From: Dictyostelium discoideum
Taxonomy: Eukaryota
NCBI GenBank assembly: GCA_000004695.1
Contig: CM000150.2
Location: 96,001-160,000 of the forward strand
Length of the DNA stretch: 64,000 nt
Direction of reading: 5' to 3'
The translations under genes and the position numbers were made by a program. Below, piece by piece: positions 1-56,615 of the stretch; positions within the stretch are counted from its first letter, which is position 1; every line of letters begins with the position of its first letter. The notes below the pieces were generated by a model. It saw only the letters and a list, made by a program, of their open reading frames with translations. It did not search any database and was not told the origin of the DNA.

Positions 1-163
1 TTGGTGTTGAAATGTCCATTTACATCATAAAATTGTTTATAAGAACGGTAATATGCAAGACAAAATGGACATATATTTTTATGCATAATATAATGAATAA
101 TAATATTTTTAAAATTCTTTAATTTTTCTCTGCAATTAATGCATGACATGTTATTTAAATTCA
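1..163 (-). CDS. N-terminal fragment (runs off window start) of a multicopy Cys-rich / C2H2-like zinc-finger protein family; ATG at 161-163; reverse complement of 62505-62665
   Basis: Reverse complement encodes MNLNN(I/M)SCINCREKLKNFKNIIIHYIMHKNICPFC..., near-identical to the N-termini at 62505 and 58825. Confidence 0.6.
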
Positions 164-179
164 TTTTGTTTGCTGGCTG

Positions 180-894
180 GAAATTAAAAATAATATTTTT
201 TTTTTTTTTTTCCTCGAGTTTTTACGTTTTTTTTTTTTTTTTTTTTTCATTTTATTCAAATTTTAGCATTTTAGCAAGTAGATATATGATTTAGTACTTA
301 GAATTTTATATTTAGAGGGATATACCCCATTTTCAAAAAATGACCGGGAACCTATGACCCTGTCTATACCTTTTTCTTTTTAAAATATTAAAAAAAAAAA
401 CTATAAAATCTGCCCAATTTATTGTAAAACTACACTAATGCAATAATATACATGTGCACTCGTTAATTGTTTATTAATTATAAAAAATAAAAAATAAAAA
501 ATCTTTTTTTATATGTATGTTTATACTTATAATATAAATATGAAAAACAAATAATTAAATTTTTTTTTTTTTTTTTTTGATATTTTTCGCTTTTTGAAAT
601 GAAAAGTAAAATTTAAAATAACATAATATAAAACCCAAGGCAATTGAAACACTTATTTATTATTAATTAATAAAAATAATAATAATAGAATTCAATTGCC
701 ACTGAAACAAATAAATAAAGAATTAAAATTACTTTGGTTATCTTTTTAGTTTTTTTTTTTTTTTAATTTTCATAATTTTTTTTTTTTTCTTTTATTTTCT
801 TATTTTTTTTTTTTTTTTAATAAATTTGAAATAAATAGTGTAAAAATTGATTTGAAATGTATTTAAAATGCATTTAAAATGTATTTTAAAAAAT
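180..894. repeat. Inverted copy of the upstream region found at 60866-62504, lacking the TIR element present at 61472-62373 (the empty site)
   Basis: Reverse-complement identity by eye, including poly-A/T runs; the TIR element and its TA duplication are absent here. Confidence 0.6.
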
Positions 895-1135
895 ATAATT
901 AATAAAAGCTTAAAAAAGGATTAATAAGTAATTTTAAATTACATTAAAAATAACTTTTTTAAATTTATTATAAAGTGATTAAAACATTATTTAAAAACCG
1001 CTTTATAATAAATTTAAAAGGTCATTTTTAATGTAATTTTAAATGACCTTAAAAATATCTTTAAAATTACCTTTTTAAAAAGCAAATTTTAAGCCAATTT
1101 AAAGTTGATTTAATGGTGTAATTTTCATCGCTGTG
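895..1135 (-). mobile_element. Fragment of TIR hairpin element (variant terminus ...CATCGCTGTG at 1135); homolog of the 59728-59995 palindrome arm
   Basis: Sequence identity to the 59740-59990 region; terminal CGCTGTG motif. Confidence 0.5.
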
Positions 1136-2600
1136 TGGAAAGTTTACTTCCTGTTCTTCTGAAAACGGTTGTTGGTACCGTTGGCAGATTTGGTATTGTT
1201 GCTACCTGATGCAACATTACTTGGTGATCCATTGAAGTTGTTAGATCGGCCATTACTCCCACTACTGGATTTATTATCGCTACTGTTTCCTGTAGTGTTA
1301 TTACCACTTGGGTTAACTAATTTCTTGACATTGGGCTTGGAATGATAATTCAATTTTAACAATGATTGTTTAGCTTCGTTGTTCTTTCTGATTGACTTGG
1401 CTAGCTTTCTTACACGTTCAGTTTCAGTTTCATCAAAAATCTTTGGTGTATCCTTGATCTTAATTGGTAAGAGTACTTCAGAACCATAGATTTCTTTAGC
1501 GATGTTGTTACGAAGGACACGACTAAGCGATGCTTGAGCATTAACAACTAAGACGATTGCTCTCTGAGTTAAGTAACTAATAAGTTCTACATCGACATTA
1601 GAGCTATCAGATGATAAGATACTTGACATGAGAAGCAAAGGTTTCAAGCTATCGTTGATTCGCTTTTCAACAATCAACAAGTCAGTATCATTGTTCTTGA
1701 CGTTGGGTGATACAGTAATACCTTCAGGTGTACCGAATGGAGCGAAATTCACTTGGAAGTTAGATGGAAAGTTGAATACTTTATTCAATTCGGATATCTC
1801 ATCTTTCTTGAGGATTCATTCTTCTTCGACGACATTGTTACTTGATTCATCTTCACTTTGTTCATTCTCAGTGTCAGAGTCATCATGAGAAGGTTGGCTA
1901 CGTGAATTGGTATTAGATGAGAACATAGGTTCTTTCATGAATCTTGTTAAGGCTAAGGAAAGGTTGTTGATTTGATCCTCCATTGATTTCATTCTTAAAT
2001 CAAAGGATTCAGCGCTATTAGAGGTAGAGGTACTACCACTAGAGGCTTCATTATTATTAACAGTGGTAGACATATTTTATTGTTGATATCTAAAATTATA
2101 ATATGAGAAAAATAATAATATTAAAAATTAATAAAGAGAAATAATTATTTGTATAAAATTTGTGTGTGTGTGTATCTTAAATATATATAGGAGGAATTCC
2201 CAAATAAAATAAATCAAATTGTTTTAGTTTTTTGTGCCACTATTTATACGTTTTTATTTTCTTAAAAATTTCTCAAAACTCAAAAAAATAAGTGTTTTCG
2301 ACCCTTCACAACTTTGTGCATTGTGTCGGTTCGGAATTTTTATGTTTTTCGACCTTGCGCAATGATCGCGTCATTGTGCCGGTTCGAAATTTTTACTTTT
2401 CTTCGAAAATTTTTTATTCTTCGAATGTTCTAGAACATTCTAAAAAATTATCTTAAATATTTGGGATCGCGTCATTGTGCCGGTTCGAAATTTTTACTTT
2501 TCTTCGAAAATTTTTTATTCTTCGAATGTTCTAGAACATTCTAAAAAATTATCTTAAATATTTGGGAAATTAAAATAAATAAATGTTATTCATAATATAT
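1136..2600 (-). mobile_element. DIRS-type retrotransposon copy a: 5' ITR (2076-2600, with an internal ~115-bp tandem duplication) plus ORF1, truncated at 1136
   Basis: ORF1 protein nearly identical to other copies; ITR core sequence (gtgccggttcgaaattttt...gaatgttctagaacattc). Confidence 0.85.
1144..2073 (-). pseudogene. DIRS ORF1 (gag-like), split into two frames around 1790-1816
   Basis: ORF track entries 1816-2073 and 1144-1788 together match the 335-aa ORF1 of intact copies. Confidence 0.8.
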
Positions 2601-2858
2601 ATATGATAATATAAACACCGTCCAATAGCTCGTTAATGGATATAATTCTTTCGTGGAACGTTTTAATGTGCGGGTGTTTCCGCGCCAATGACGGCTAGCT
2701 GGTGGTCGCTTTTTGTAATAACAAACAAGATTGAACAGAGATATCATCATTAGCGATCAACTTAAATAAATAGTCGACAGTCTGGGGAGTAGTGGGCATT
2801 TCTGGATCGATAAGGTAAGCGTGACGATTATTTTAAATGGTTTCGCCTAAGCCCTTAA

Positions 2859-3108
2859 CTACTGTAGCAAAGCACGTTTGAAATATAAATTAAATACCAC
2901 AACTAGAACGTTAGGGTTACGTATAGCATACTCAATTAACCAGCGAGTTTTCCCAGTTTGACGTGAGCCACTGAAGCCAATTGTAAACAACTCTCGTAAA
3001 TGACATGCCTTAGTACCGCCAAGATTATTAGCAGCGCTACGCATTATTAATCGCAATACTTTTCTCAAGTTCTTGAACTATCGCATCATAATCAATTGTA
3101 GACGTCAT
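2859..3108 (-). pseudogene. Terminase-like P-loop ATPase gene fragment (Walker A GFSGSRQTGKT); frame broken relative to the paralog at 29994-30140
   Basis: SRQxGKT Walker-A motif of the type seen in phage large-terminase ATPases; RBS tgaggtaaaaaaatcATG; the paralog has an uninterrupted N-terminus MTSTTTIDYDAIEKSIAINNERSAANNLGGTKACQLRELFTIGLSGSR. Confidence 0.45.
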
Positions 3109-3120
3109 GATTTTTTTACC

Positions 3121-3288
3121 TCATTTATTTAAGTGGTTGTATGAACTCACAGGGTTATAGTCCTCATAAACAGGAAGTAGTAGACCAGGTGCATTAGGCA
3201 TTGTTATTAATACACGCTGCCCACGCACATAAGGTTGGTTGTTAACATATTTAAAATCAGTTGCCACATAGCCTTTTGGAATTTCCAT
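3121..3288 (-). CDS. Small phage-like gene (55 aa, MEIPKGYVATDFKYVNNQPYVRGQRVLITMPNAPGLL...); its stop overlaps the RBS of the downstream terminase-like gene
   Basis: RBS aagagga 9 nt upstream of ATG; conserved paralog at about 30158-30327. Confidence 0.5.
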   Translation of the reverse strand: MEIPKGYVATDFKYVNNQPYVRGQRVLITMPNAPGLLLPVYEDYNPVSSYNHLNK

Positions 3289-3549
3289 GGTAAACTAATC
3301 CTCTTAATAGGGGACCGATGGCGGGTTGACCGTCAGACTTCTACAACACCCAACCACGTAATATCGGAGTGCTTCTGTCATTGTTATTTTATTTTTAGAT
3401 GCTACGCGGTTGATTGTGGTTTACTTACACCAAAGTGTAAGCGTCGGTTATTTGCTGGCATACTTTCAGCCACGTCCCAAGTCTCCAATTCACCGCCTTC
3501 CTGCTATTAATGGTGCCTAATGACGGACATTCATCTCAAAATAAAACCA

Positions 3550-3585
3550 GGAGGGGTAAAACCCTCCTATATACTAATCTTACGG
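3550..3585. terminator. Bidirectional intrinsic terminator-like hairpin (AGGAGGGgtaaaaCCCTCCT flanked by A-run and T-run)
   Basis: GC stem with U-tract on both strands; repeated in the paralog at 30572-30606. Confidence 0.5.
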
Positions 3586-3889
3586 ACGTGGTGATATCGA
3601 ATACCACATTCTGTAATTTGGATCATGCTGGGTGTTATTTAATGTTTTGGCTATTGCTATAACCGACCGAGCTACTGTGTTTCCACAGAAATGACTCGAA
3701 CCATCGACCCACAGCGTGTATATAGTGAGCTGGTGGTTTAACCTCCCAAGGGCGGTGTTCGACTATTCGTCAAACGAAGACAAGCTTTTTAATTTAATTA
3801 AACTACCACACCATCTTCAATTTCGATTTTGGTAGAAGAGTTAGATTCAGTTAATCAATGTTGGCTTCGAAATCCAGAATCTCTTTTTC

Positions 3890-4078
3890 CTACTGCTTGA
3901 TTACTTTGCTGATCTCCAGCGGCTGATAACGTTCGATAACTGGATTAACGAACACAGCAATGGAAGCTTCATCGGCTTTCTTAGTACCGTTGAATGCTTC
4001 GGTGCGCGCGGTATTTTCACGCTGGTCAAAATTGGAGTTAGCGGTAACGTTGTGACGAGATATCGATTCGTAGTTCAC
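3890..4078 (-). CDS. Hypothetical phage-like protein (62 aa)
   Basis: ORF in the GC-rich island on the same strand as its neighbours; no recognisable motif. Confidence 0.3.
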   Translation of the reverse strand: MNYESISRHNVTANSNFDQRENTARTEAFNGTKKADEASIAVFVNPVIERYQPLEISKVIKQ

Positions 4079-4130
4079 TTTCTAAGCTTTGACAATATCG
4101 CGTTTCTCGCCTAATGCATTATGTGCATGT

Positions 4131-4761
4131 ACAGCAAAGAAAAATCCACATTTAAAGCAAATTTAAAGCAAAGTTGATTTAAATTGGATTTAAATTGAAT
4201 TTAAAGCCGGGTTTAAAAAATTCATTTTCAAGGTAATTTTTAAGATAATTTTAAGATATTTAAAAATGCCTTTAAAATTTATTTTAAAATAATTTTAAAG
4301 AGGATTTAAAGTTGATTTAAAGTAGATTTAAAGTGAATTAAAATTTCCTTTAAATATAAATTTAAGGTTTTTAATAAAAAACATCTAATTTTAGATCAAA
4401 AAAATGGGGATAAAATATTCTATCATTTTTAAATTATCATCAAAGCAATCAAATGGTGTAATGGTTGATGAGACTACCCTTTGATTGATGAGACTACCCT
4501 TTTGGTAAATTTTCAAAAATTTCAAAAAAAAATTTTATAAAATTTATCCGTTAAATAACGGCTTCGAACTCCGGACCTCGCTTTTAAAGCCATTAAAAAG
4601 CTAATTCCTAAGGTAATTATAAAGGTAATTTATAAGGTGGTTTTAAAGTAACCTTAAAAATTACCTTTAAAATTACCTTAAAAATTGCTTTTGTACAGGA
4701 CTTTAAATTCGCTTTAAATTAAATTTAAATTTGCTTTAAAGGTGGTTTTTCTTTCACTGTG
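4131..4761 (+). mobile_element. TIR hairpin element (B-type end ...A-type end; left terminus 2 bp short), inserted into the 3' end of a phage-like gene
   Basis: Termini ACAGCAAAGAAAAATCCAC ... GGTGGTTTTTCTTTCACTGTG; internal tRNA-like/hairpin core. Confidence 0.7.
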
Positions 4762-5026
4762 TAGTGTATTCTTTGCCAGCTACGGTAATAAGCGTACTAG
4801 CGTTGGACAATATCACTTTAGCAAGGATATCTTCACGCACACGAATGATATCTTGTAAACCATGGTAGTTTTCTTTGATCGCATCAGAAACCGCCCCAAC
4901 GGAATCATTGAAACCAGCTTCTTGGGCGAATTCATCAGTACCGCGAGTTAGTGAAATAAGCATCAGACCGTTGGACATGGATTTAACCGTGGCCAATGTA
5001 CGGGTAATTGAAATCTTAGTAGCCAT
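4754..5026 (-). CDS. Phage-like gene (MATKISITRTLATVKSMSNGLML...) truncated at its 3' end by the TIR element; the last codons read into the TIR
   Basis: RBS aaaggaaaaggaaatataATG; the ORF stop lies inside the CACTGTG terminus. Confidence 0.45.
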   Translation of the reverse strand: MATKISITRTLATVKSMSNGLMLISLTRGTDEFAQEAGFNDSVGAVSDAIKENYHGLQDIIRVREDILAKVILSNASTLITVAGKEYTTQ

Positions 5027-5157
5027 TATATTTCCTTTTCCTTTATACGTTATAGACAGAGTGCCGAACCCTGTTTTAGAGAACGGTAGAGGCTTTCACT
5101 CTTAGGCTTTCATCGATCCCCGTTCGTGACCGTTTAGCGATTTCTTTAGATCTTAAT

Positions 5158-5247
5158 TGGTAGAGAATTAGAGATTCGAACTCTAGGAGCGGTTTCCCGC
5201 CCGACGGTTTTTAAGACCGTTACCTTGAACCACTCGGACAATTCTCC
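5158..5247 (-). tRNA. Class-II tRNA-Leu (anticodon UAA), long variable arm, discriminator A73, genomically encoded CCA end
   Basis: Manual fold: acceptor GGAGAAT/ATTCTCT, anticodon stem ACGGT/ACCGT with loop CUUAAAA, T-arm TAGAG-TTCGAAT-CTCTA, 3' ACCA; close to the bacterial tRNA-Ser/Leu body GGAAGTGTGGCCGAGCGGTTGAAGG... Confidence 0.7.
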
Positions 5248-5336
5248 AATTGGGTGACACCCATTAGAATTTCACGTAGCTCTATAGCTATTACAGTCAA
5301 TACTAACACTTCACAAAAAGGCCTGGTTAACCCCTA

Positions 5337-6014
5337 CTGATTGAACTTAGGTTGTCTTAGAGTTCCTACCAGGAAAACTGCAACTGATATCATTGTTTGG
5401 TGATTACAAAAAAGACCAGTGTTATTGGCTGGTCTTTTTGAGTTATACGATACCGTTCTCTTTACGATAACGGAATATTTTTGATCTATCGATATTAAGC
5501 ATTTCTGCAATTACTTAATCGCTATTACCTCACCAAGCAGTTCGATAATCATGGCAATATGTTCTGGGTTAAGTTGTGTCTTTTGGCTTTTACTTAATGC
5601 TGATCTACCAACACAGCGAAGAAAAAACCACCTTTAAATTCGCTTTAAATTAAATTTAAATTTGCTTTAAAGTCCCGAATTAAAGCAATTTTAAAGGTAA
5701 TTTTAAAGCGAATTTAAAGGTGGTTTTTTCTTCGCTGTGTTGGTAGATCAGCATTAAGTAAAAGCCAAAAGACACAACTTAACCCAGAACATATTGCCAT
5801 GATTATCGAACTGCTTGGTGAGGTAATAGCGATTAAGTAATTGCAGAAATGCTTAATATCGATAGATCAAAAATATTCCGTTATCGTAAAGAGAACGGTA
5901 TCGTATAACTCAAAAAGACCAGCCAATAACACTGGTCTTTTTTGTAATCACCAAACAATGATATCAGTTGCAGTTTTCCTGGTAGGAACTCTAAGACAAC
6001 CTAAGTTCAATCAG
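5337..6014. repeat. Near-perfect ~275-bp-arm palindrome of phage-like sequence centred on a 128-bp mini TIR element
   Basis: 5337-5611 is the reverse complement of 5740-6014, read directly. Confidence 0.85.
5612..5739. mobile_element. Mini TIR element (internally deleted, two termini back to back) at the palindrome centre
   Basis: CACAGCGAAGAAAAAACCACCTTTAAA ... TTTAAAGGTGGTTTTTTCTTCGCTGTG. Confidence 0.7.
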
Positions 6015-6644
6015 TAAAACACTAAAAATTACCTTTAAAATTACCTTTAAAATTACCTTTTTAATCGCTTTAAAAGCGAGGTCCTGAGTTCGAAGCCGTT
6101 ATTTAACGGATAAATTTTTTAAAATTTTTTTTTTTAATTTTTCAAAAATTACCAAAAGGGATTCGATCCCCCGACCCTCTATCAAAGGGTAGTCTCATCA
6201 ACCATTACACCATTTGATTGCTTTGATGAAAATTTAAAAATGATAGAATATTTTATCCCCATTTTTTTGTTCTAAAATTAGATCTTTTTTATTAAAAACC
6301 TTAAATTTATGTTTAAAGGAAATTTAAATTCACTTTAAATCTACTTTAAATCTACTTTAAATCCTATTTAAAATTAATTTAAAATAAATTTTAAAGGTAT
6401 TTTTAAATATCATAAAAATTATCTTAAAAATTACCTTAAAAATCACCTTTAAAATCACCTTTAAAATCACCTTTATAAATTTATTTTAAAGCAAATTTTA
6501 AAGGCATTTTTAAATATCTTAAAAATTACCTTAAAAATTACCTTAAAAATGAATTTTTTAAACGCGGCTTTAAATTCAATTTAAATCCAATTTAAATCAA
6601 CTTTTCTTTAAATTTGCTTTAAAGGTGCATTTTTCTTTGCTGTG
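6015..6644 (-). mobile_element. TIR hairpin element, truncated on the palindrome side; B-type terminus at 6624-6644
   Basis: Internal modules and tRNA-like core in reverse orientation; terminus GGTGCATTTTTCTTTGCTGTG. Confidence 0.7.
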
Positions 6645-6693
6645 AAGAGATCCAGTTCTACCATTCTGGCGATGCTTGCTTGCCGATCAGTCA

Positions 6694-6810
6694 TTAACGA
6701 ATCTTCTTCAGTAACTGAGTACGAAGAATTGGATTAGCATCTCGCTTGGCTTTATCGGCCGCTGCAGTGCGTTTTGTACAGTTACCAAAATCAAAAGATT
6801 TACATGGCAT
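6694..6810 (-). CDS. Small basic protein (38 aa, MPCKSFDFGNCTKRTAAADKAKRDANPILRTQLLKKIR) with a strong GGAGG-type SD; paralog at 47855-47971
   Basis: Two copies about 90% identical, both with an RBS; hairpin after the stop in the 47972 copy. Confidence 0.5.
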   Translation of the reverse strand: MPCKSFDFGNCTKRTAAADKAKRDANPILRTQLLKKIR

Positions 6811-7054
6811 GACATCCCTCCATTGACTTAAAAGAAAAATAAGGGGATAACATGTGTTCTGGTCAAGCCATACCCTTAATGAGGGTGTTAATCTTCGTCA
6901 TAATAATTTTGATCTTTTGGAGTACTTGCATGCAGAGAGGTTATGGGGACCATCCCTACACATTATATCCGGTACTGTGTAAAACTTTACATATCAATAG
7001 ATCAAAAATAAGAGGATGTAGTACATCCCCTCTTTCAATTAAGGCAACATGACC

Positions 7055-7319
7055 CTAGTCAAGTAGCGCATTGTGTCACGTAATAGGGATACACGCCCGC
7101 GATTAAGATCAACAATACCGTAGTTCAAATGAATAGAATCGTTATATATACCTTCTGCGTTAAGCCTGAAGTTCAAACGCGAACGGAGCGTAGTATGAAC
7201 CTGACCTTCACTTCTGAAAATGTGTACTCGTTATCTAACGCCACATCAAAGGCAGGCCAACCTGTTAATGCTGTTGATCTTATCCCAATTACGTGAAACA
7301 ATGCGCTACTTGGCTAAGG
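7055..7319. repeat. ~30-bp inverted repeat (CAAGTAGCGCATTGTKTCACGTAAT) flanking about 200 bp in phage-like island C
   Basis: 7055-7084 is the reverse complement of 7288-7319. Confidence 0.5.
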
Positions 7320-7384
7320 TCATGGTGGCCAATACAACTCCACCTGTAAACCTTTCACCAACCACTTGTCATTGACTAATAACT

Positions 7385-7706
7385 AGTCAGTTTCGTTGTT
7401 CTTGACGTTGGGTGATACAGTAATACCTTCAGGTGTACCGAATGGAGCGACATTCACTTGGAAGTTAGATGGAAAATTGAATATTTTATTCAATTCGGAT
7501 ATCTCATCTTTCTTGAGGATACATTCTTATTTGACGAGTAAACCTTGATTGTTTACCATATGTTTGTACTGACCAAGTAAGGTATCGGATAATTGATAAT
7601 CGGTTGGAACATCGACATTGTTACTTGATTCATCTTCACTTTGTTCATTCTCAGTGTCAGAGTCATTATGAGAAGGTTGGCTACGTGAATTGGTATTAGA
7701 TGAGAA
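7385..7706 (-). mobile_element. DIRS ORF1 fragment with an internal deletion, abutting phage-like DNA at a small palindrome (TGACTAATAACTAGTCA)
   Basis: Matches ORF1 N-terminal coding sequence of other copies. Confidence 0.75.
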
Positions 7707-8222
7707 TTAATAATTTAATTTATTAAATTACATTTATATTAAATATATATAAATATATTATGAATAAAATTTATTTATATTATCATATATATATATATAT
7801 TATGAATAACATTTATTTATTTGAATTTCCCAAATATTTAAGATAATTTTTTAGAATGTTCTAGAACATTCGAAGAATAAAAAATTTTCGAAAGAAAAGT
7901 AAAAATTTCGAACCGGCACAATGACGCGATCATTGCGCAAGGTCGAAAAACTGAAAAATTCCGAACCGACACTATGCACAAAGTTGTGAAGGGTCGAAAA
8001 CTCTTATTTTTTTGAGTTTTGCTAAATTTTTAAGAAAATAAAAACGTATAAATAGTGGCACTAAAAACTAAAACAATTTGATTTATTTTATTTGGGAATT
8101 CCTCCTATATATATTTAAGATACACACACACACAAATTTTATACAAATAATTATTTCTCTTTATTAATTTTTAATATTATTATTTTTTCTCATATTATAA
8201 TTTTAGATATCAACAATAAAAT

Positions 8223-9230
8223 ATGTCTACCACTGTTAATAATAATGATGCCTCTAGTAGTAGTACCTCTGCCTCTAATAGCGCTGAATCCTTTGATTTA
8301 AGAATGAAATCAATGGAGGATCAAATCAACAACCTTTCCTTAGCCTTTACAAGATTCATGAAAGAACCTATGTTCTCTTCTAATACCAACTCACGTAGCC
8401 AACCTTCTCATGATAACTCTGACACCGAGAATGAACAAAGTGAAGATGAATCAAGTAACAATGTCGATGTTCCAACCGATTATCAATTATCCGATACCTT
8501 ACTTGGTCAGTACAAACATATGGTAAACAATAAAGGTTTACTCGTCGAAGAAGAATGTATCCTCAAGAAAGATGAGATATCCGAATTGAATAAAGTATTC
8601 AACTTTCCATCTAACTTCCAAGTGAATGTCGCTCCATTCGGTACACCTGAAGGTATTACTGTATCATCCAACGTCAAGAACAATGATACTGATTTGTTGA
8701 TTGTCGAAAAGCGAATCAACGATAGCTTGAAACCTTTGCTTCTCATGTCAAGTATGTTATCATCTGATAGCTCTAATGTCGATGTAGAACTTATTAGTTA
8801 CTTAACTCAGAGTGCAATCGTCTTAGCCGTTAACGCTCAAGCATCGCTTAGTCGTGTCCGTCGTAACAACATCGCTAAAGAAATCTATGGTTCTGAAGTA
8901 CTCTTACCAATTAAGATCAAGGATACACCAAAGATGTTTGATGAAACTGAAACTGAACGTGTAAGAAAGCTAGCCAAGTCAATCAGAAAGAACAACGAAG
9001 CAAAACAATCATTGTTAAAATTGAATTATCATTCCAAGCCCAATGTCAAGAAATCAGTTAACTCAAGTGGTAATAACACTACAGGAAACAGTAGTAATAG
9101 TAAATCCAGTAGTGGGAGTAATGGCCGATCTAACAACTTCAATGGATCACCAAGTAATGTTGCATCAGGTAGCAACAATACCAAGTCTGCCAACGGTACC
9201 AACAACCGTTTTCAGAAGAACAAGAAGTAA
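8223..9230 (+). CDS. DIRS ORF1 (gag-like, 335 aa)
   Basis: Full-length ORF conserved across copies. Confidence 0.8.
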   Translation: MSTTVNNNDASSSSTSASNSAESFDLRMKSMEDQINNLSLAFTRFMKEPMFSSNTNSRSQPSHDNSDTENEQSEDESSNNVDVPTDYQLSDTLLGQYKHMVNNKGLLVEEECILKKDEISELNKVFNFPSNFQVNVAPFGTPEGITVSSNVKNNDTDLLIVEKRINDSLKPLLLMSSMLSSDSSNVDVELISYLTQSAIVLAVNAQASLSRVRRNNIAKEIYGSEVLLPIKIKDTPKMFDETETERVRKLAKSIRKNNEAKQSLLKLNYHSKPNVKKSVNSSGNNTTGNSSNSKSSSGSNGRSNNFNGSPSNVASGSNNTKSANGTNNRFQKNKK

Positions 9231-12144: not shown

Positions 12145-12600
12145 TATATATATATATATGATAATATAAATTAAAAATTTAATTTATTAAATTATATTTT
12201 ATATTAAATATATATATATATATTAGTCCCATCCCACCCGCCCTTAGTCGGAATTCCATAAATCAAATTGTTTTAGTTTTTAGTGCCACTATTTATACGT
12301 TTTTATTTTCTTAAAAATTTAGCAAAACTCAAAAAAATAAGAGTTTTCGACCCTTCACAACTTTGTGCATAGTGTCGGTTCGGAATTTTTCAGTTTTTCG
12401 ACCTTGCGCAATGATCGCGTCATTGTGCCGGTTCGAAATTTTTACTTTTCTTTCGAAAATTTTTTATTCTTCGAATGTTCTAGAACATTCTAAAAAATTA
12501 TCTTAAATATTTGGGAAATTCAAATAAATAAATGTTATTCATAATATATATATATATATTTAATATAAAATATAATTTAATAAATTAAATTTTTAATTTA

Positions 12601-13263
12601 TTTGAACGACAGTATCAATGAAAATACCACCAGATTTTTCACCAATGATTCTTTTATCGTAGAAAGTATCTACAGTATCGTTTGATTTCCAGCGACCCAT
12701 CTTCTTGACAACATGGAACAGAACGTTATTGAACAACAGCAGAGAAGCCATAGCGGAACGGGTAGAGTGAGATTTGAACTTTCCAGTGTCAATACCTGAG
12801 CTTGAGAGTGTTGATAATACAATTGAACTAATATCATTAACTTGGAGCGGTTCACCCTCATTCTTAATAAAGACAGAGTCACCCGAATGGGGCTTTCTTC
12901 TTCCTTTAGAGGCTCTAAGGTATGTTGCAAGGTGGCGAACAGGACATACTTGAGAGTTAGTATCATCTAACGATGTTAATTATAAGATTGAAACAACACC
13001 ACTTCTTTGTTCTTTAGCATTGATAACTAGACCTTTGATTGAGTCAGTACTAATAATGAGACCTTTGAATGACCACTTCACCAAGTCTGATGATCTTGAT
13101 AAACCAAACATTTTACAGAGTACAAGTGTCTTGTTTAATAGCGCAGTGTATATGTACTTGGGGATAACTTTGATAGTAGACAAGTGCTTGGATACTTGAT
13201 TTGCACCCCATATCTCTTTATACTTTGCAGATGAAGGGAGCAACTTGTGAATACCAGTCATAA
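12601..13263 (-). mobile_element. DIRS copy c: 3' fragment of the recombinase ORF (frame-broken), tail-to-tail with copy b and sharing its ITR
   Basis: ORFs 12980-13261 and 12670-12966 match recombinase region. Confidence 0.8.
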
Positions 13264-23614: not shown

Positions 23615-23617
23615 CTT

Positions 23618-27713: not shown

Positions 27714-29940
27714 TTAATAAATTAAATTTTTAATTGATTGAGTTGGTTCGAGAACACTCTTTTCTAGATTTAACTTGAAACCTAGTTTGACAAGTAAGTC
27801 CATTGTCTTTTTGAGGTTGGATAAACATTCTTCTTTTGTTGAACCGACGATTAATAGATCGTCCAAGTAAGCGATGACGGATACTTTGATATCTCTCAAC
27901 ATTCGAAGTACAGGTCTTAACAGCATTGTAAAGATACGAGGAGCTGTCGATAACCCGAACGACATTGTTTTCCAACGGTAATGCGAACCTTTCCACAAGA
28001 AGCGGAATAAGTCTCTGTATTGCGGATCTACTAACACGTGGAGTAGGCTTTCTTGATATCGAGTTTTACCATGTAATAACCTTGTTTGACCATTGACGGT
28101 AGATTCTTGATTCCTTCCATCTTGAATGATTGGTTGTTGATGTAAGTGTTTAACCTTTTTAGATCGAGAACTGGACGATGTAGATTCGTTCCAGGTTTTG
28201 GAACCGTAAACACGTTGGAGTAAAAAACGCGCTTTGAATAACGGTTTGGAAGTACTTGTTCGATGGCATCGTCTAATAACAAGTCTTGTACTTCCTTTGT
28301 GATGCAATCTGATTTCGGACCCTCTGGAATTGAAATCGGAATTGGGTTTAGCATCGGCTTGAAGTTTGGAAGTAGATGGACTTTTAATCCATTTACGACC
28401 TCTTGACAAAAGTTTAGAAGACCCAATTCTTTCCAAACTTGTTTGTGGTGGAACAGACGTCCACCTACTGGTAAGTTTACTTCTTGTTCTTCTGAAAACG
28501 GTTGTTGGTACCGTTGGCAGACTTGGTATTGTTGCTACCTGATGCAACATTACTTGGTGATCCATTGAAGTTGTTAGATCGGCCATTACTCCCACTACTG
28601 GATTTACTATTACTACTGTTTCCTGTAGTGTTATTACCACTTGAGTTAACTGATTTCTTGACATTGGACTTGGAATGATAATTCAATTTTAACAATGATT
28701 GTTTTGCTTCGTTGTTCTTTCTGATTGATTTGGCTAGCTTTCTTACACGTTCAGTTTCAGTTTCATCAAACATCTTTGGTGTATTCTTGATCTTAATTGG
28801 TAAGAGTACTTCAGAACCATAGATTTCTTTAGCGATGTTGTTACGACGGACACGACTAAGCGATGCTTGAGCATTAACGGCTAAGACGATTGCACTCTGA
28901 GTTAAGTAACTAACAAGTTCTACATCGACAATAGAGCTATCAGATGATAACATACTTGACATGAGAAGCAAAGGTTTTAAGCTATCGTTGATTCGCTTTT
29001 CGACAATCAACAAGTCAGTATCATTGTTCTTGACGTTGGATGATACAGTAATACCTTCAGGTGTACCGAATGGAGCGACGTTCACTTGGAAGTTAGATGG
29101 AAAGTTGAATACTTTATTCAATTCGGATATCTCATCTTTCTTGAGGATACATTATTCTTCGACGAGTAAACCTTGATTGTTTACCATATGTTTGTACTGA
29201 CCAAGTAAGGTATCGGATAATTGATAATCGGTTGGAACATCGACATTGTTACTTGATTCATCTTCACTTTGTTCATTCTCAGTGTCAGAGTTATCATGAG
29301 AAGGTAGGCTACGTCTTAAATCAAAGGATTCAGCGCTATTAGAGGCAGAGGTACTACTACTAGAGGCATCATTATTATTAACAGTGGTAGACATTTTTTA
29401 TTGTTGATATCTAAAATTATAATATGAGAAAAATAATAATATTAAAAATTAATAAAGAGAAATAATTATTTGTATAAAATTTGTGTGTGTGTGTATCTTA
29501 AATATATATAGGAGGAATTCCCAAATAAAATAAATCAAATTGTTTTAGTTTTTAGTGCCACTATTTATACGTTTTTATTTTCTTAAAAATTTCGCAAAAC
29601 TCAAAAAAATAAGAGTTTTCGACCCTTCACAACTTTGTGCATAGTGTCGGTTCGGAATTTTTCGACCTTGCGCAATGATCGCGTCACTGTGCCGGTTCGA
29701 AATTTTTATTTTTCTTTCGAAAATTTTTTTTTTCTTCGAATGTTCTAGAACATTCTAAAAAATTATCTTAAATATTTGGGAAATTCAAATAAATAAATGT
29801 TATTCATAATATTAATATATATATGATAATATAAATCTTGGAATGTTTTAGAACATTCTAAAAAATTATCTTAAATATTTGGGAAATTCAAATAAATAAA
29901 TGTTATTCATAATATATATATATGATAAATTAAATTTACT
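27714..29940 (-). mobile_element. DIRS copy f: 5' ITR (29400-29940, partly duplicated), ORF1 with an internal deletion, N-terminal half of the RT ORF; truncated at 27714
   Basis: ORFs 28477-29121, 29152-29394, 28031-28426, 27714-28664. Confidence 0.8.
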
Positions 29941-29993
29941 AGAACGTTAGGGTTACGGATAGCATACTCAAATAACCAGCGAGTTTTCCCAGT

Positions 29994-30140
29994 TTAACGT
30001 GAGCCACTCAAGCCAATTGTAAACAACTCTCGTAACTGACATGCCTTAGTACCGCCAAGGTTATTAGCAGCGCTACGCTCATTATTAATCGCAATACTTT
30101 TCTCAATCGCATCATAATCGATGGTTGTCGTAGACGTCAT
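29994..30140 (-). CDS. Terminase-like gene N-terminal fragment (48 aa, uninterrupted here; cut downstream by the DIRS-f ITR)
   Basis: RBS atgaggtaaaaaatcATG; homolog of 2859-3108. Confidence 0.45.
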   Translation of the reverse strand: MTSTTTIDYDAIEKSIAINNERSAANNLGGTKACQLRELFTIGLSGSR

Positions 30141-30334
30141 GATTTTTTACCTCATTTATTTAGGTGGTTGTATGAACCCACATGGGTATAGTCCTCATAA
30201 ACAGGAGCTACTTTTGCTGGTAGACCAGGTGCATTAAGCATTGTTTTTAATACACGCTGACCACGCACATAAGGTTGGTTGCTAACATATTTTAAATCAG
30301 TTGCCACATAGCCTTTTGGAATTTCCATGGTAAA

Positions 30335-30520
30335 CTAATCCTCTAAATAGGTGACCAATGGCGGGTTTACTTCTACAACACTCAACCACGTAATGTTGGA
30401 AGTGCTTCGGTATTGTTCTTTTATTTTGAGATGCCATGCGGTTGATCGTGGTTTACTTACCCCAAAGTGTAAGTGTCGGTTATTTGCTGGCATACTTTCA
30501 GCCACTTCCCAAGTCTCCAA
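30335..30520 (-). CDS. Small phage-like gene (61 aa, TTG start); the island-A copy (3300-3480) carries an in-frame stop
   Basis: Stop overlaps the RBS of the next gene; paralog pseudogenised. Confidence 0.4.
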   Translation of the reverse strand: METWEVAESMPANNRHLHFGVSKPRSTAWHLKIKEQYRSTSNITWLSVVEVNPPLVTYLED

Positions 30521-31121
30521 TTCACCGCCGTCCTGCTATTAAGGGTGCCCAATGACGGACATCCATCTCAAAATAAAACTAGGAGGGGGTAAAACCCTCC
30601 TATATACTGATCTTACGGACGTGGTGATATCGAATACCACATTCTGTAATTTGGATCACACTGGGTGTTATTTACAATACCTAACGGACTGTATTTATCG
30701 TAGAAGGATCCCACTGTTGCGTTGCAATACCGTTAACAATCAACACTAAGCTGATTGTCCATACACTATTCTTCGTCGATGTATGATAAGGTAGGACAAT
30801 CCCATCAGCCGGTAGCTTATCCAATACAGCATCAACAATCAGCGCTTTGGACGGTGCTAAAATAAGGAACATCCGTTGTTAGCTTTGTTTTCCATATTTG
30901 GTTCACTGTCTTACAAACAAACCACCGGCATCTTTACCCTGCGTGTTACTAATAGGAATGGGGAAGGCATTCCTATTAGTAACACGCATAACTGACGTTT
31001 TCACTAGGGGCTAATACTAATTAATATTACCATGCCAGCTACGGTGTCAATCCAGTGTGTCAAATTAGTAACAGCTTTGGAGCCATCCAGATATGACGGA
31101 ACGCCTGGGCCTGAAATTTAA

Positions 31122-46024: not shown

Positions 46025-46026
46025 TG

Positions 46027-47768: not shown

Positions 47769-47854
47769 GAGATTAACACCCTCATTTAGGGGATGTCTTG
47801 ACCAGAACACAGGTTATCCCCTTATTTTTTCTTTTAATTCAATGGAGGAATGTC

Positions 47855-51900: not shown

Positions 51901-52782
51901 CTAAAGAACAAAGAAGTGGTGTTGTTTCAATATTAGAATTAACTTCGTTAGATGATACAAACTCTCAAGTGTGCCCTGTTCGCCACCTTGCAACATACCT
52001 TAGAGCCTCTAAAGGAAGAAGAAAGCCCCATTCGGGTGACCCTGTCTTTATTAAGAATGAGGGTGAACCGCTCCAAGTTAATGATATTAACTCAATTGTA
52101 CTATCAACGCTCTCAAAGTCAGGCATTGATATTGTCAAGTTCAAATCTCACTCTACCCGTTCCGCTATGGCTTCTCTGCTGTTGTCCAATAACGTTCCGT
52201 TCCACGTTGTCAAGAAGATGGGTCGTTGGAAATCAAACGATACTGTAGATTCCTTCTACGATAAAAGAATCATTGGTGAAAAATCTGGTGGTTTCTTAAA
52301 TACTGTCGTCCAAATTTCATAATATATATATATATATGATAATATAAATTAAAAATTTAATTTATTAAATTATATTTTATATTAAATATATATATATATA
52401 TTAGTCCCATCCCACCCGCCCTTAGTCGGAATTCCATAAATCAAATTGTTTTAGTTTTTATTGCCACTATTTATACGTTTTTATTTTCTTAAAAATTTCG
52501 CAAAACTCAAAAAAATAAGTGTTTTCGACCCTTCACAACTTTGTGCATAGTTTCGGTTCAGAATTTTTCAGTTTTTCGACCTTGTGCAATGATCGCGTCA
52601 TTGTGCCGGTTCGAAATTTTTACTTTTCTTTCGAAAATTTTTTTTATTCTTCGAATGTTCTAGAACATTCTAAAAAATTATCTTAAATATTTGGGAAATT
52701 CAAATAAATAAATGTTATTCATAATATATATATATATATTTAATATAAAATATAATTTAATAAATTAAATTTGTAATTAAAC
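48990..52782 (+). mobile_element. DIRS copy l: both ITRs; internal deletion fusing ORF1 in frame to RT (637-aa ORF 49444-51357); recombinase ORF 49890-52322 intact
   Basis: LLVEE|GIKNLPSMVKQ junction compared with copy b. Confidence 0.85.
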
Positions 52783-53313
52783 AGAACCCTGAGACGTATG
52801 TGGTCTACCAGAAGGTATCAAATGTAGCAAATCGCGTGCTTTAGAACAATCGCATGTATTCGGTGTGTTATGTATTCCAACGTACCATACCCGTAATCAT
52901 TCGTTTGGTTTCAAATATGTGTTGGTATCGAAGAACCTACAGCGTCTTCAACCAGGTGAGCACCTTGCGGCGGGGGACAATTTTTGCACACTCCCCTAAT
53001 TTGACAGAGGGCGGTGACTAAATACGGGTGTGAAACTAACGTGTGTTTCATGTCACTACCAGAAGTCGAACAGGATGGAATGATTGCTACGGAATCATTC
53101 GTTAATGCCATGGCGTGTGATAAGATGGAGAGTCGTTTATTGCAATGGGGTGAGAACAATGTACTTGTTAAACAACTACAAACCTTATCCAGTGATCGGG
53201 GAACAAATTCGGGATGATGGTTTTTTATTCGCAATGCGCAATATCGAATCTGATGTTGGTCTGGTCAACATGACTGCGAAAGCATTGATGGAAGTGGATG
53301 TCATCTTGGATAA

Positions 53314-53835
53314 ATGCGTGTACGGCGACCTAGTGCAACGGTAATCAACATTACCATCAAGTCCAACCGCCTGCGTACAGGTCGTTCAGAAGTTCAGTTC
53401 TATGATAAACAATCCGACCCCTATGAAAAAGCAGACCGTGACTTTCCTATCAATCTGCGTGGTGTGTATGAAACATTATTGAGTCGTCACCCACATACCT
53501 TAATGTTAGAGCCTAGTCTGAACACTTTGGTCAATAATGCCATATCTGATACCGGTGGTTTGGATCGTCGAATGAATGCCCAAACTGGTGCAATCTTGGC
53601 GATGGATAAAGGTGTTCAGATCTATAACAAGTTCCTATCGGCTACTGGCGTGCTTAGATCTCTTTTGTTAAATGCATTGTGGCAGGTGTGCGTTTCAAGA
53701 TCTCTGACAGTCATGAGGGTAAAGGTGTTATCGTTCATGTCTTTAAAGATGAAGATGCACCGACATGGCGTGCGTACAGATGTCATCGTGGATAACGCCT
53801 CTATCACTAAAACTCTATTGAACAGTTTGAGTTGA
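53314..53835 (+). CDS. Phage-like hypothetical protein (173 aa); upstream frames 53014-53344 look like frameshifted parts of the same gene
   Basis: ORF track; overlapping stop/start with the next gene. Confidence 0.35.
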   Translation: MRVRRPSATVINITIKSNRLRTGRSEVQFYDKQSDPYEKADRDFPINLRGVYETLLSRHPHTLMLEPSLNTLVNNAISDTGGLDRRMNAQTGAILAMDKGVQIYNKFLSATGVLRSLLLNALWQVCVSRSLTVMRVKVLSFMSLKMKMHRHGVRTDVIVDNASITKTLLNSLS

Positions 53836-54452
53836 TGTCCAACAGTCCTATCTATCAGTCCAAAGCAAACCGTGATCATCATGTGAGCTGGGTGATTGAA
53901 CATGAAGTAGAGCTGCTAGCGTTAACTGATCGCTTGTATTATGGGGCAGAGCAGATTCTTCGCATTAAGAAGAACCATGACTTCCCAACATATCCTGCTC
54001 GTTATCGAGCACCTTATGGGAGGTTTGTGATAACTCGTGATCCAGTAATGATTGTACCAGTGTATATCATCCTGTTGGAAAAGATGAGGGAATATTTGGT
54101 TTCCTATGCAGTGCCTAAGTTAATGCACTTCGGTACTTTATCTATTATTACTCAAGTAGACAAGTACGCCCTCCCTTGGCGTAATGTACCAACTCGTTTG
54201 GCTGGTGAGTCAGACATTCGTCTGTTCTGGCGGCTGGTACACAAACCGTCTATTATCATTGCCAATACACCGGCAATGCAGAAAGCAGTAGGTAAGTTAT
54301 TGCGTCATGAGAATCCAATGCGTATTGACAATTTGATGGATGAAAGTGTATCTCCACTAGGTCGTAATCGACCAGTGCAGATGTATAAACACATGCAAGC
54401 TTGTCGTGGTATTCGCTTTGAACGTCAATTGTTAACTGAAGGGGCCGCTTAA
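53835..54452 (+). CDS. Phage-like hypothetical protein (about 205 aa)
   Basis: ATG at 53835 overlaps the TGA of the upstream ORF. Confidence 0.4.
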   Translation: MSNSPIYQSKANRDHHVSWVIEHEVELLALTDRLYYGAEQILRIKKNHDFPTYPARYRAPYGRFVITRDPVMIVPVYIILLEKMREYLVSYAVPKLMHFGTLSIITQVDKYALPWRNVPTRLAGESDIRLFWRLVHKPSIIIANTPAMQKAVGKLLRHENPMRIDNLMDESVSPLGRNRPVQMYKHMQACRGIRFERQLLTEGAA

Positions 54453-54474
54453 AGCAGATCGGCAAGATTTGCTA

Positions 54475-55059
54475 ATGAATGGAGAGCAGATCTGGTCGTT
54501 AGATCCTCAGTGTAATAATCCTAAAGTTCAGGTTCTCGCTGAGGATAAAACTTTTGAGATGTTGGTGCGTCCTCTGATAGCCAGCTGGCCAATTCAGAAG
54601 TTCCAAGAAGGGATGGCTCTGGGTAAGCGGCATTTCTTAACAGGGTTCCGCATTTCAAACAAAGGTATCCGTAACATACTGACCGAAGGGTATCGTGACT
54701 ACGATATGATCATTGTACAACTAATGGGCACTGATCTGACCGGTGGGTTCATCGATGTAGTGAAATTTAACTCATTACAAGCCCGTACCATTAACCATAT
54801 CAACAACGCCTTTGTTGCAAGAATTCCTGAATATGTCACTACTGCAAGTATGGTTGACTATTTAGAGATTCTATTATTCGTCAAGTTCGAGCAGGTCTGG
54901 TTTAGTTCCAGAAATCTATCGGCTAGGCTTATAAGAAAGGACTGGGCCATATCAAAAACCCTGATAAATTTCCAAAGAATCAAATCGCTGAGGATATCAA
55001 ACAAGGCGGTGTTTCCGATGGCCAGACTGCTCAGGTGTTTATCTCATGTGGTTACCTAA
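54475..55059 (+). CDS. Phage-like hypothetical protein (about 194 aa)
   Basis: ORF track; ATG 23 bp after the previous stop. Confidence 0.35.
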   Translation: MNGEQIWSLDPQCNNPKVQVLAEDKTFEMLVRPLIASWPIQKFQEGMALGKRHFLTGFRISNKGIRNILTEGYRDYDMIIVQLMGTDLTGGFIDVVKFNSLQARTINHINNAFVARIPEYVTTASMVDYLEILLFVKFEQVWFSSRNLSARLIRKDWAISKTLINFQRIKSLRISNKAVFPMARLLRCLSHVVT

Positions 55060-55990
55060 CCGACCATAACTCCAGGATCTTTGTTCGTCCTGTTACGGTC
55101 AAGGTATTGGTAGCTTCTATGAAGCCTTTGTTGAATCACATTCTGCTACTGAGGCCATGATCTTTACCAAGAAACCATTGGAGGATTCAGAATGGTTTAA
55201 CCGTAAGTTACAATTGGTCGGTTAGGCCATACAGCGCGTCCATCTTGGTGAGGATTGAGGTACTCAAATTACAGTACCGGTAATAATGCGTCCAGGCTGG
55301 TCCGGTGTAATGGCGGGTAAGTATTACGTAGACGACAGTGGTCAGATGTAAGCCATTCATGAGAAAGATGAAGGTAAACTGCTGCGTATAAGGTCACTAA
55401 TGTATTGTCAGCATAAATATCGTTCGGGTGTTTATGAGCGCTGTTATGGTAAGTTGGCTATGTCGATCCCGTATTTCAACGTACTGGGCAAGATAGGGAA
55501 AAACGAAGCCATTGCTGGGCACGTGTCCGCAACAGAATTTGATGCTGCTTTATAACAGAAGATGTTGTCCACTAAACACCTGGATACTTCTTCTACGGTG
55601 GATCCGTTTATCATTCATCGTGAAGATGCAATTTATATAACGTGTGGTATTCGTGATAATACTGCTGGTTTAAACCTACGACTGAAAGGGCAGAATGTAG
55701 CCAGATGACGTAGGGATTGTGCTTGATCAGTTCTTAGAGTTACTTAACCGACTTCTACAGGTGAATATCGTTCATGCTGAAATGATTCTGTACTCGGTAA
55801 TGGTGCGTGACCCAAGCAAGTTGGATCATTGCTTACCGCGCGCTAACGAACAACGGCAGTTTAGTTCTTATCACGAATGTATCGAATTCCCCAGTCTTTT
55901 GGTGCAGTTGCTGTATCAAGAGCAAGCGGATGTTATGATGAAACCCATGACGTTCTTAATTGATAACCGTCAGTCACATCGGCAGATAGA

Positions 55991-56083: not shown

Positions 56084-56110
56084 TATCTTTGCAGACTAAG
56101 GGGTAGGGCG

Positions 56111-56506
56111 ATGCGCACTACGGCAACGCTTATCATTGGTAATCATGGATTTACGGTTAAAGACTACAATGATGAGTTCTACAGTAAGGCAAGGGCGTAC
56201 TGCGCACGTTTCGTTAAATACCGGATTGAATCTAAGGTCGTCCAAGGACGGAGATCTTTTGTCAAGGTACCAGATCGTGTATTCGGCTCAGCTTCGAAGG
56301 ACCGTAAAGAGCTACACATTAACTGTTTAGCTGAATTTAAACAATTTATGTTGAATAGTGGTTGGAACCCTGAACGGTTCAAAGAAATCACCAGGGAATT
56401 ACCTGAGGGACGAGATGTCAATTCCAATGACCACCAGGTTGCAGTACCAGTTAGAGAAAGATCCTTCTGGTATCACGACCCGAATCAATACATTGCAAAC
56501 GGGTAA
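56111..56506 (+). CDS. Phage-like hypothetical protein (131 aa)
   Basis: ORF track. Confidence 0.35.
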   Translation: MRTTATLIIGNHGFTVKDYNDEFYSKARAYCARFVKYRIESKVVQGRRSFVKVPDRVFGSASKDRKELHINCLAEFKQFMLNSGWNPERFKEITRELPEGRDVNSNDHQVAVPVRERSFWYHDPNQYIANG

Positions 56507-56615
56507 AGGAAAGACATTCTATGCCATATACAACATGTTCAAACTGCAGAAGCTCACTGGCATTATGTTAATGCCGAAGTACATCACGACTTGGCATACT
56601 GGCTTACATGACTTT

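Follow-up and report, generated by a model that had tools for sequence, protein, structure and literature searches.

How does a bacterial-type tRNA gene come to lie in a chromosome of the amoeba Dictyostelium discoideum, and what has it become there? The question is raised by 90 nt on the minus strand at 5158..5247 of the window, by which we mean the whole stretch of DNA that was analysed (64,000 nucleotides of contig CM000150.2, assembly GCA_000004695.1). A first-pass annotation, made from the letters alone, had folded these nucleotides by hand into a cloverleaf with a long variable arm, the anticodon loop CUUAAAA, A73 and an encoded CCA, and had read them as a bacterial-type class-II tRNA-Leu(UAA) that is foreign to its eukaryotic surroundings. 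As regards the cloverleaf, ARAGORN and Rfam agree with the hand fold. ARAGORN calls a 90-nt tRNA-Leu with anticodon taa, the sole tRNA that it finds in the 64-kb window, and the comparison with Rfam RF00005 that had been proposed as a check gives 50.7 bits (E = 6e-8) for 5161..5247 on the same strand, a full-length match to model positions 1-71 against a gathering score of 29 bits. The acceptor stem, whose pairing was to be verified by realignment, keeps its seven pairs when read from the alignment, the first of them (G1.U72) being a wobble. The anticodon stem and the T stem are clean (5/5 pairs each), with the loops CUUAAAA and UUCGAAU, respectively. In the D stem, C11-G24 and C12-G23 are paired and U10.U25 is mismatched, while G13.A22 is the arrangement typical of tRNA-Ser. 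The variable region of 18 nt, with a 6-bp stem (GGGCGG/CCGCUC) and a GAAA loop, exceeds 10 nt and forms a stem-loop of its own, as in class II, and the 3' end consists of A73 followed by a genomically encoded CCA. The class-II body and the CCA support the bacterial or phage type that had been proposed. The sequence at 5158..5247 is therefore a real tRNA gene of bacterial/phage type, as judged by ARAGORN, Rfam, Ser and Leu profile HMMs and alignment.

The thermodynamic (MFE) fold of the tRNA does not return the cloverleaf (z = -1.8). Such a miss is common for unmodified tRNA sequences, and the fold is poorer still here because the 10-25 pair is broken; it is counted neither for nor against the identity of the tRNA.

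The name given to the gene is another matter. The tRNA-Leu(UAA) call takes its authority solely from the anticodon and A73, whereas the body that carries them is of the tRNA-Ser(UGA) type by nearest neighbours, profile HMMs and BLAST, which makes the call misleading. When the 90 nt are compared with 50,697 phage records, 28 records match; the annotated matches are all tRNA-Ser except PhiPA3 (two records, annotated as tRNA-Thr), and none is a tRNA-Leu. The phage BLASTN check that had been suggested thus upholds the phage type of the tRNA and speaks against its Leu isotype. The best match is likewise a tRNA-Ser gene in all 5,426 complete genomes of E. coli, where no tRNA-Leu matches. When the anticodon arm is masked and the rest is compared with 193 unique class-II phage tRNAs (99 Ser, 47 Leu, 20 Tyr and others), Ser accounts for 49 of the 50 nearest sequences and Leu for none, the best Ser neighbour agreeing at 55/70 positions and the best Leu at 43/70. 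Profile HMMs score the tRNA at 60.2 bits for Ser against 10.3 bits for Leu.

Position 35 separates two sets of viral sequences. The exact 18-nt anticodon arm with G35 is present in at least 120 IMG/VR contigs, and the 108 tRNAs recovered at such sites are all tRNA-Ser(UGA), mostly with G73 and at most 71/87 identical to the window tRNA. The arm with A35 is present in 7 contigs, all of which hold a genuine tRNA-Leu(UAA). These seven share the whole anticodon arm with the window tRNA and, like phage tRNA-Leu(UAA) in general, the CUUAAAA loop, A73, the class-II length and the encoded CCA, but their D-arm (GGUGGAAUGG..ACAC), variable arm and acceptor stem differ, so that only 50-57/87 positions are identical. 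Anticodon UAA and A73 are therefore those of a tRNA-Leu(UAA), while the body is not of Leu type. What the body has in common with bacterial and phage tRNA-Ser(UGA) is far more extensive: the D-arm GNCCGAGUGGUUNAAGGNA with G13.A22 and positions 20a/20b, a 17-18-nt anticodon arm that is identical except at position 35, a long variable arm whose 6-bp stem is capped by a GNRA-type loop, CUAGAGUUCGAAUCUCUA as the T arm, GGAGAA as the 5' strand of the acceptor stem, and a CCA encoded in the gene. The window tRNA differs from them in having A35 and not G35, A73 and not G73, U72 and not C72, and U10.U25 in place of G10-C25, as well as in residing in a eukaryotic nucleus. Since the nearest tRNA-Ser bodies come from unrelated phages, one of them crAss-like, the tRNA sequence cannot identify the donor.

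The differences all point the same way. Compared with 68 unique tRNA-Ser(UGA) sequences, in which the anticodon UGA is conserved at 100% and G73 at 82%, the tRNA deviates, among the columns with at least 80% conservation, only by G10>T (G10 87%), G35>A, C72>T (C72 96%) and G73>A, with a further departure, C25>T, in a column that is 72% conserved. Every one of these changes from the Ser consensus runs from GC to AT. Three of them weaken helices and the other two give the apparent Leu identity. Conserved G/C columns are changed in 4/29 cases and conserved A/T columns in 0/20, a difference without statistical significance on its own. Because A35 and A73 are each one G>A transition away from the Ser state, the tRNA is filed as Ser-derived, and not as a working tRNA-Ser.

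The sequence is thus probably a non-functional, decaying phage tRNA-Ser pseudogene in the nucleus of the amoeba, and neutral AT-biased decay of a phage tRNA-Ser(UGA) is the simplest account of it. We infer an original anticodon UGA, with the ancestral G35 and G73 taken from the tRNA-Ser genes of other phages and not from the donor's own tRNA. The D. discoideum genome is extremely AT-rich (~22% GC), and AT-biased mutation in this host would have changed G35 to A, and so UGA to UAA, hence the Leu call; the same bias would have produced G73>A, C72>T (leaving G1.U72) and G10>T with C25>T (leaving U10.U25). Decayed in this way, the tRNA would be a pseudogene without a role in the amoeba. The decay is mild, because most stems are intact and the GC content of the tRNA (49%) is still above that of its flanks. 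Against decay, it can be noted that A35 and A73 are exactly the two features that make the tRNA look like Leu, a coincidence of roughly 1-2% a priori for two named positions, and one that could instead reflect selection in the donor.

Such selection would have remoulded a tRNA-Ser into a genuine phage tRNA-Leu(UAA) by the anticodon shift and G73>A before transfer, and the gene would have reached the amoeba roughly as it now stands. Jumbo phages with AT-rich genomes commonly provide tRNAs for codons that end in A or U; UAA and A73 are both in place, A73 is found in all genuine phage Leu(UAA) genes examined, and the anticodon, T and variable stems are intact. We nevertheless regard this history as unlikely. 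Among 2.9 million viral contigs, a Ser-type D-arm is followed at the right spacing by CUUGAAA in at least 120 and by CUUAAAA in 0, and none of the 47 unique phage tRNA-Leu sequences resembles the body, the best of them being the 43/70 neighbour that falls behind the 55/70 of Ser. U10.U25 and G1.U72 moreover disturb positions that tRNA-Ser conserves. What bacterial SerRS reads is the long variable arm, not the anticodon, and a tRNA remoulded in this manner would therefore risk placing Ser at Leu codons.

The reading as a decayed phage tRNA-Ser draws further on the surroundings, for the flanks of the gene are phage-derived and collinear with phage. The tRNA heads a relic of about 3 kb that is collinear with genes 217 and 219 of the Erwinia jumbo phage AH06, within an island of ~40% GC (island A) between the DIRS terminal repeats 2503-2604 and 7791-7892, the first of which is the DIRS-1 inverted terminal repeat adjoining the island on its left and the second its partner. 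A phage-like gene had been placed 130 bp from the tRNA, and the start codon of a gp217 homolog is indeed found at 5026, 131 nt downstream of the tRNA 3' end. The N-terminal part of this homolog (residues 1-95 of AH06 gp217 / Ea35-70 gp199, phrog_1491) lies at 4763..5026 on the minus strand (PHROG E = 7e-16; tblastn 47%, E = 2e-17). It begins with ATG behind a Shine-Dalgarno-like motif, AAGGAAA, and its 90-aa ORF at 5026-4754 matches phrog_1491 positions 1-93. The C-terminal part, residues 99-214, lies at 3810..4135 on the same strand (tblastn E = 3e-13), with two in-frame stops and a frameshift: an ORF at 4078-3890 matches phrog_1491 profile positions 117-178, and tblastn with the 218-aa protein of the Erwinia jumbo phage Ea35-70 places residues 99-197 at 4135-3854 and the tail at 3881-3810 in another frame. 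The two parts are separated by a non-autonomous Tc1/mariner-like DNA transposon at 4136..4762 (627 bp, AT-rich with 23% GC), which has the TIRs CAGTGAAAGAAAAA.../...TTTTTCTTTGCTG and TA on both flanks, and of which at least 6 related copies occur elsewhere in the window. The neighbouring phage gene is thus a pseudogene split by a host transposon, which the first-pass annotation had not seen. Further along, a remnant of a gp219 homolog (residues 5-86 of 172, AH06 gp219, phrog_2586) is found at 2862..3114 on the minus strand (PHROG E = 2.6e-8; tblastn 39-49%), and the order and strand of the two genes in island A are the same as in AH06. Searches of the other short ORFs of 2605-7380 against PHROG and Pfam give nothing besides gp217 and gp219.

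Upstream of the tRNA, the sequence at 5248..5610 (minus strand) is also of non-host-like composition, at ~40% GC by sequence reading and GC profile, and has no protein or DNA homolog in our searches. It contains at ~5408-5439 a hairpin made of an A-run, a 6-bp stem and a T-run (aaaaagaccag..ctggtctttttt), which resembles a bidirectional intrinsic terminator; owing to its loop of 9 nt, it escaped a simple scan for terminators. An inverted duplicate (98%) of 5335-5660 follows at 5691..6016 on the plus strand, as revealed by repeat comparison, and most of it (5722-6014) is missing from a second D. discoideum assembly. At the DNA level, similarity to phages across 4700-6300 is confined to the tRNA. 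Part of a GC-rich stretch at 6650-7380 is repeated at 47770-48008.

Further DNA from this phage lineage is found elsewhere in the window, at distances of 25 and 48 kb, where the first-pass annotation had not noticed it; it came to light when the ORFs of AH06 were all compared locally with the window. Island A', at 29925..30674 on the minus strand, is by sequence comparison an 88%-identical duplicate of 2885-3641, including the gp219 homolog remnant. Island B, at 52776-56615 on the plus strand, is collinear with AH06 genes 267-269. Its first gene (52776..54440) is a homolog of the non-virion RNA polymerase beta subunit (AH06 gp267, residues 132-739; PHROG 9e-45; tblastn 60%, E = 1e-76), which is frameshifted and truncated at its left end by a DIRS-1 end at 52778. 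The second (54460..55979) is an RNA polymerase beta' homolog (AH06 gp268; PHROG 4e-23 and 1e-12; tblastn up to 72%), of which residues 13-430 and 562-654 are present, with an internal deletion and frameshifts. The third (56108..56615), recognised by PHROG and tblastn, is homologous to AH06 gp269, an ATP-dependent DNA helicase, of which the N-terminal 191 residues remain; at 56616 it is cut off by another member of the TIR transposon family to which the element at 4136-4762 belongs. All phage protein genes in the window are dead, through stops, frameshifts, deletions or truncations.

From which phage did these pieces come? The best phage matches of all of them are the Agricanvirus phages Ea35-70 and AH06, Salmonella phage SA002 and Erwinia phage pEa_SNUABM_37, at 35-72% amino acid identity, and Agricanvirus belongs to the Chimalliviridae, the phiKZ-like jumbo phages. 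Two marks of this family are found here. The non-virion RNA polymerase is split into beta and beta' (phrog_3295 at 9e-45 and phrog_3015 at 4e-23, with 60% identity to the Agricanvirus beta subunit), and the gene order is collinear with AH06 for gp217-gp219 and for gp267-gp268-gp269, on the same relative strand. Other hallmarks (chimallin, PhuZ tubulin and the major capsid protein) were not found in the window or in contig JBTAPE010000022.1 of the second assembly when the AH06 ORFs of 50 aa or more were all run in tblastn, which matched only homologs of gp217, gp219 and gp267-269; within the 64 kb, the phage genome is represented by fragments only. Since the protein identities reach only 35-72%, the donor is an unsampled relative. 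Wider searches agree: IMG/VR holds two loci with relatives of gp217, neither closer than 42%; exhaustive HMMER over 1.84 billion representative proteins finds nothing closer than 61% except the amoeba's own copies; and word-indexed protein searches match these copies alone.

The position of the tRNA suits this lineage as well. Agricanvirus-group phages have single tRNA genes (Asn, Tyr) scattered in the late-region gp217/gp219 module, which makes a tRNA 131 nt upstream of a gp217 homolog in character. Ea35-70, pEa_SNUABM_37 and SA002 have in common with the window a lone tRNA on the same strand, a few hundred bases from the gp217 and gp219 homologs, but it is a tRNA-Asn or a tRNA-Tyr and not Ser or Leu. 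In AH06, ARAGORN finds no tRNA gene at 160000-182000. A permissive Rfam scan detects no remnant of any other tRNA, for instance of the tRNA-Tyr found behind gp219 in relatives; its sub-threshold miRNA matches are hairpins of the palindrome at 5335-6016 and of the transposon. The T4-like phages to which the tRNA had been linked can be set aside as donors: the flanking genes match only phiKZ-like jumbo phages and are collinear with the Agricanvirus-group Chimalliviridae, and the tRNA itself matches generic tRNA-Ser genes from many kinds of phage. A mitochondrial or plastid origin is likewise rejected because both flanks are phage genes.

The host side of the locus is equally distinct. The window has a GC content of 20-40% and is dominated by about six copies of a DIRS-type retroelement, whose overlapping ORFs encode a reverse transcriptase, RNase H, a Dam-like domain and a tyrosine recombinase; one Ty3/gypsy-type element is also present. 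The 90-aa ORF beside the tRNA has a single match in 5.8 billion proteins, 99% identical and annotated in D. discoideum. The matching protein is encoded by JBTAPE010000022.1 (GCA_054883475.1), which is collinear with positions 1-15310 of the window at 99.9% identity. [quoted passage not shown] Together, the DIRS and Ty3 elements, the D. discoideum match and the centromeric DIRS-1 arrays make the eukaryotic context real, as had been proposed from the letters, and the context is a centromere-type heterochromatin. A tRNA of bacterial/phage type beside a phage-derived neighbour is foreign to such a genome, which again bears out the earlier reading. The phage DNA resides in the nucleus. Its stops and frameshifts, the transposon insert and the truncation by DIRS ends identify it as old nuclear DNA and not contamination. 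Its islands have 40-43% GC, against 44-48% in the phage (44-47% in the homologous regions and 48% in AH06 as a whole).

A model of how this arrangement arose can be proposed. Phage DNA would have been taken up together with phagocytosed prey bacteria, and one or several genome pieces of a phiKZ-like jumbo phage related to Agricanvirus and SA002 would have entered the D. discoideum nucleus, probably by illegitimate integration into the DIRS-1 centromeric heterochromatin. There, the insert would have evolved without selection, while stops, frameshifts and deletions accumulated in its protein genes. Copies of DIRS-1 and an element of the Tc1/mariner-like type would have inserted into it or truncated it, and one part would have been duplicated.

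Could the amoeba have put the tRNA to use? A domesticated gene would be transcribed by Pol III in Dictyostelium, for instance to provide additional decoding of UUA, a very frequent codon. To the extent that the letters can tell, nothing in the terminator, the location or the neighbours is suggestive of this, and we consider it very unlikely. Internal A-box-like and B-box-like sequences (TGTCCGAGTGG / AGTTCGAATCT) are kept, as in any tRNA, and A73, the main LeuRS determinant in eukaryotes, is present. The tRNA is also identical in GCA_054883475.1, but the two assemblies differ by only ~0.1%, so this identity is uninformative on constraint. No run of four or more T is read within 131 nt downstream, and there is therefore no Pol III terminator. 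The tRNA has a broken D stem and a weakened first acceptor pair; the location is DIRS-1 centromeric heterochromatin, the neighbouring phage genes are all dead, and the tRNA is flanked by phage sequence, with no tRNA-targeting retroelement of the TRE or DGLT-A type beside it.

A native nuclear gene of Dictyostelium for Leu or Ser that has a CCA by chance and stands next to foreign DNA by accident would be highly improbable. Eukaryotic cytosolic Leu and Ser tRNAs do have a D-arm layout similar to that of bacterial tRNA-Ser, and a chance CCA has a probability of 1/64. The features of a eukaryotic nuclear (Pol III) tRNA gene, i.e. a CCA that is not encoded, an oligo-T and host-like flanks, are nonetheless lacking at 5158-5247. 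Both flanks have ~40% GC, against ~23% in the host transposon; the downstream one runs into a phage gene with a Shine-Dalgarno-like motif, and the upstream one contains the bacterial-type terminator-like hairpin. Besides having no T-run terminator, the gene is the only tRNA in 64 kb, and its anticodon arm is, G35>A aside, identical to that of the tRNA-Ser(UGA) in at least 120 viral contigs. Contamination or chimeric assembly, in which reads of a food bacterium or its phage were joined to amoeba repeats, is hardly credible, even though enterobacteria are the food on which Dictyostelium is grown and Erwinia, Salmonella and Serratia are the hosts of the closest phages. It is excluded by the combination of a host transposon with TIRs and TA flanks inside a phage gene, DIRS-1 ends that adjoin phage DNA at three places, genes full of stops and frameshifts, an internal duplicate that has diverged by 12%, and the recurrence of the same structure at 98.9-99.9% identity, both in a long-read contig of independent origin and in short-read assemblies (island B in the Logan assemblies of at least 8 SRA runs, at 98.9%). 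No sequenced phage, moreover, comes closer than ~61% amino acid identity.

With the tRNA read as a decayed phage tRNA-Ser, the locus as a whole deserves more attention than the tRNA as such, which is of little weight, being an ordinary bacterial-type gene in decay. We lean towards the view that DNA of the Chimalliviridae, several kb long and in at least three fragments within 64 kb, is fixed in the centromeric DIRS-1 heterochromatin of the amoeba, is common to several isolates and was previously unreported. Prokaryote-type DNA fixed in a nucleus is also known from NUMT/NUPT-like inserts, from fragments of Wolbachia and its phage WO in insects and from bacterial genes in Dictyostelium, and the decayed ones among such transfers likewise arrived dead, became pseudogenes and were invaded by transposons of the host. 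Here, by contrast, the DNA came neither from an organelle nor from an endosymbiont but from a strictly lytic jumbo phage of the nucleus-forming kind; it lies among centromeric DIRS-1 arrays, and a tRNA gene is part of it. The searchable literature yielded no account of phage sequences in Dictyostelium, and a paper describing comparable long-read assemblies never mentions phage; the donor type, the recipient site and the included tRNA gene thus appear to be unreported. Dictyostelium centromeres have become accessible only recently, through long-read assemblies.

If this view is correct, the locus is a fossil of direct transfer of DNA from phage to eukaryote by feeding (“you are what you eat”), and the insert may extend well beyond the window and be datable across Dictyostelium species. 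The fragments of tRNA, RNA polymerase and helicase would then document strictly lytic jumbo-phage DNA fixed in the nucleus of a phagotroph, and centromeric repeats would be a place where foreign inserts can persist neutrally. They would provide material for the idea that bacterivores gain foreign DNA by feeding, most of it dead on arrival. As relics, they could also serve as a neutral yardstick of GC to AT decay, transposon insertion and segmental duplication for the evolution of Dictyostelium centromeres. Finally, a caution for annotation follows from the two genes of island A: anticodon-based tools call a Ser-derived relic tRNA-Leu, and the public annotation contains a “protein”, ACTFIT_001916, that was made by splicing the transposon out of a dead phage gene.

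A second phage relic lies at 52776-56615 on the forward strand. It holds three pseudogenes, for the beta subunit of the non-virion RNA polymerase, its beta' subunit and a DNA helicase, which are collinear with genes 267-269 of the Erwinia jumbo phage AH06. This relic (island B) comes from the same jumbo-phage lineage as the tRNA-bearing one, and it is the larger of the two. It is bordered by a DIRS-1 end on one side and by a terminal inverted repeat (TIR) transposon on the other. The latter is part of a family of AT-rich, non-autonomous DNA transposons of about 0.6 kb, located at 4136-4762, 6016-6650, 44409-46043, 56616-57344, and 58903-62390. These elements have CAG..CTG terminal inverted repeats flanked by TA, with TTTAAAG-type repeats of 11-12-bp period in their interior, and copies are present at the edges of the phage-derived islands or inside them.

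The remnant of the AH06 gp219 homolog is itself duplicated, with a copy on the reverse strand at 29925-30674 (island A') that is 88% identical to 2885-3641. The neighbouring DIRS sequence was copied along with it (29314-29927, about 91% identical to 1993-2611), and about 290 bp are missing from the copy between the DIRS and phage blocks. Since DIRS sequence was duplicated together with the gp219 remnant, the segmental duplication of phage DNA took place after the DIRS insertion.

The public gene model ACTFIT_001916 (protein P0001) covers positions 10001-11136 of L002, the contig carrying the same locus in a second D. discoideum assembly. In this model, the N-terminal part of the dead phage gene beside the tRNA is fused to a segment from the C-terminal part of that gene, the inserted transposon being taken as an intron. 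The model is an annotation artefact, through which the D. discoideum proteome gains a protein that derives from a phage pseudogene.

A short way upstream from the tRNA is a near-perfect 326-bp palindrome, whose arms (5335-5660 and 5691-6016) are 98% identical and separated by a 30-nt spacer. Most of one arm (5722-6014) is absent from the other assembly (L002 9299-9305); either the difference is a genuine polymorphism, or one of the assemblies contains a long-read artefact here. At 5587-5764 and 4600-4694, both strands match several families of plant and animal miRNA precursors in Rfam, at scores below the threshold. These are not miRNA genes, but long AT-rich hairpins of the palindrome center and the transposon.

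The GC-rich (41%) stretch at 6650-7380 has no match to proteins, PHROG, or AH06. It contains a 47-nt inverted repeat (7045-7091/7281-7327), and part of it (6657-6894) recurs at 48008-47770 with 93% identity. The stretch may be a repeat of the host, or phage DNA that evolves fast.

Among the host elements, a Ty3/gypsy-type retrotransposon sits amid DIRS copies on the reverse strand (21614-25342), with reverse transcriptase, RNase H, and an integrase having zinc-binding and SH3-like domains. In the DIRS copies (9281-11179 on the forward strand, and others), the RT/RNase H ORF has an additional Pfam match, to the Dam (N6-adenine methyltransferase) domain (E = 4e-12). A 13-bp tandem repeat forms arrays at 17435-17902 and 47319-47700, about 30 kb apart, with 49 register-shifted copies reported.
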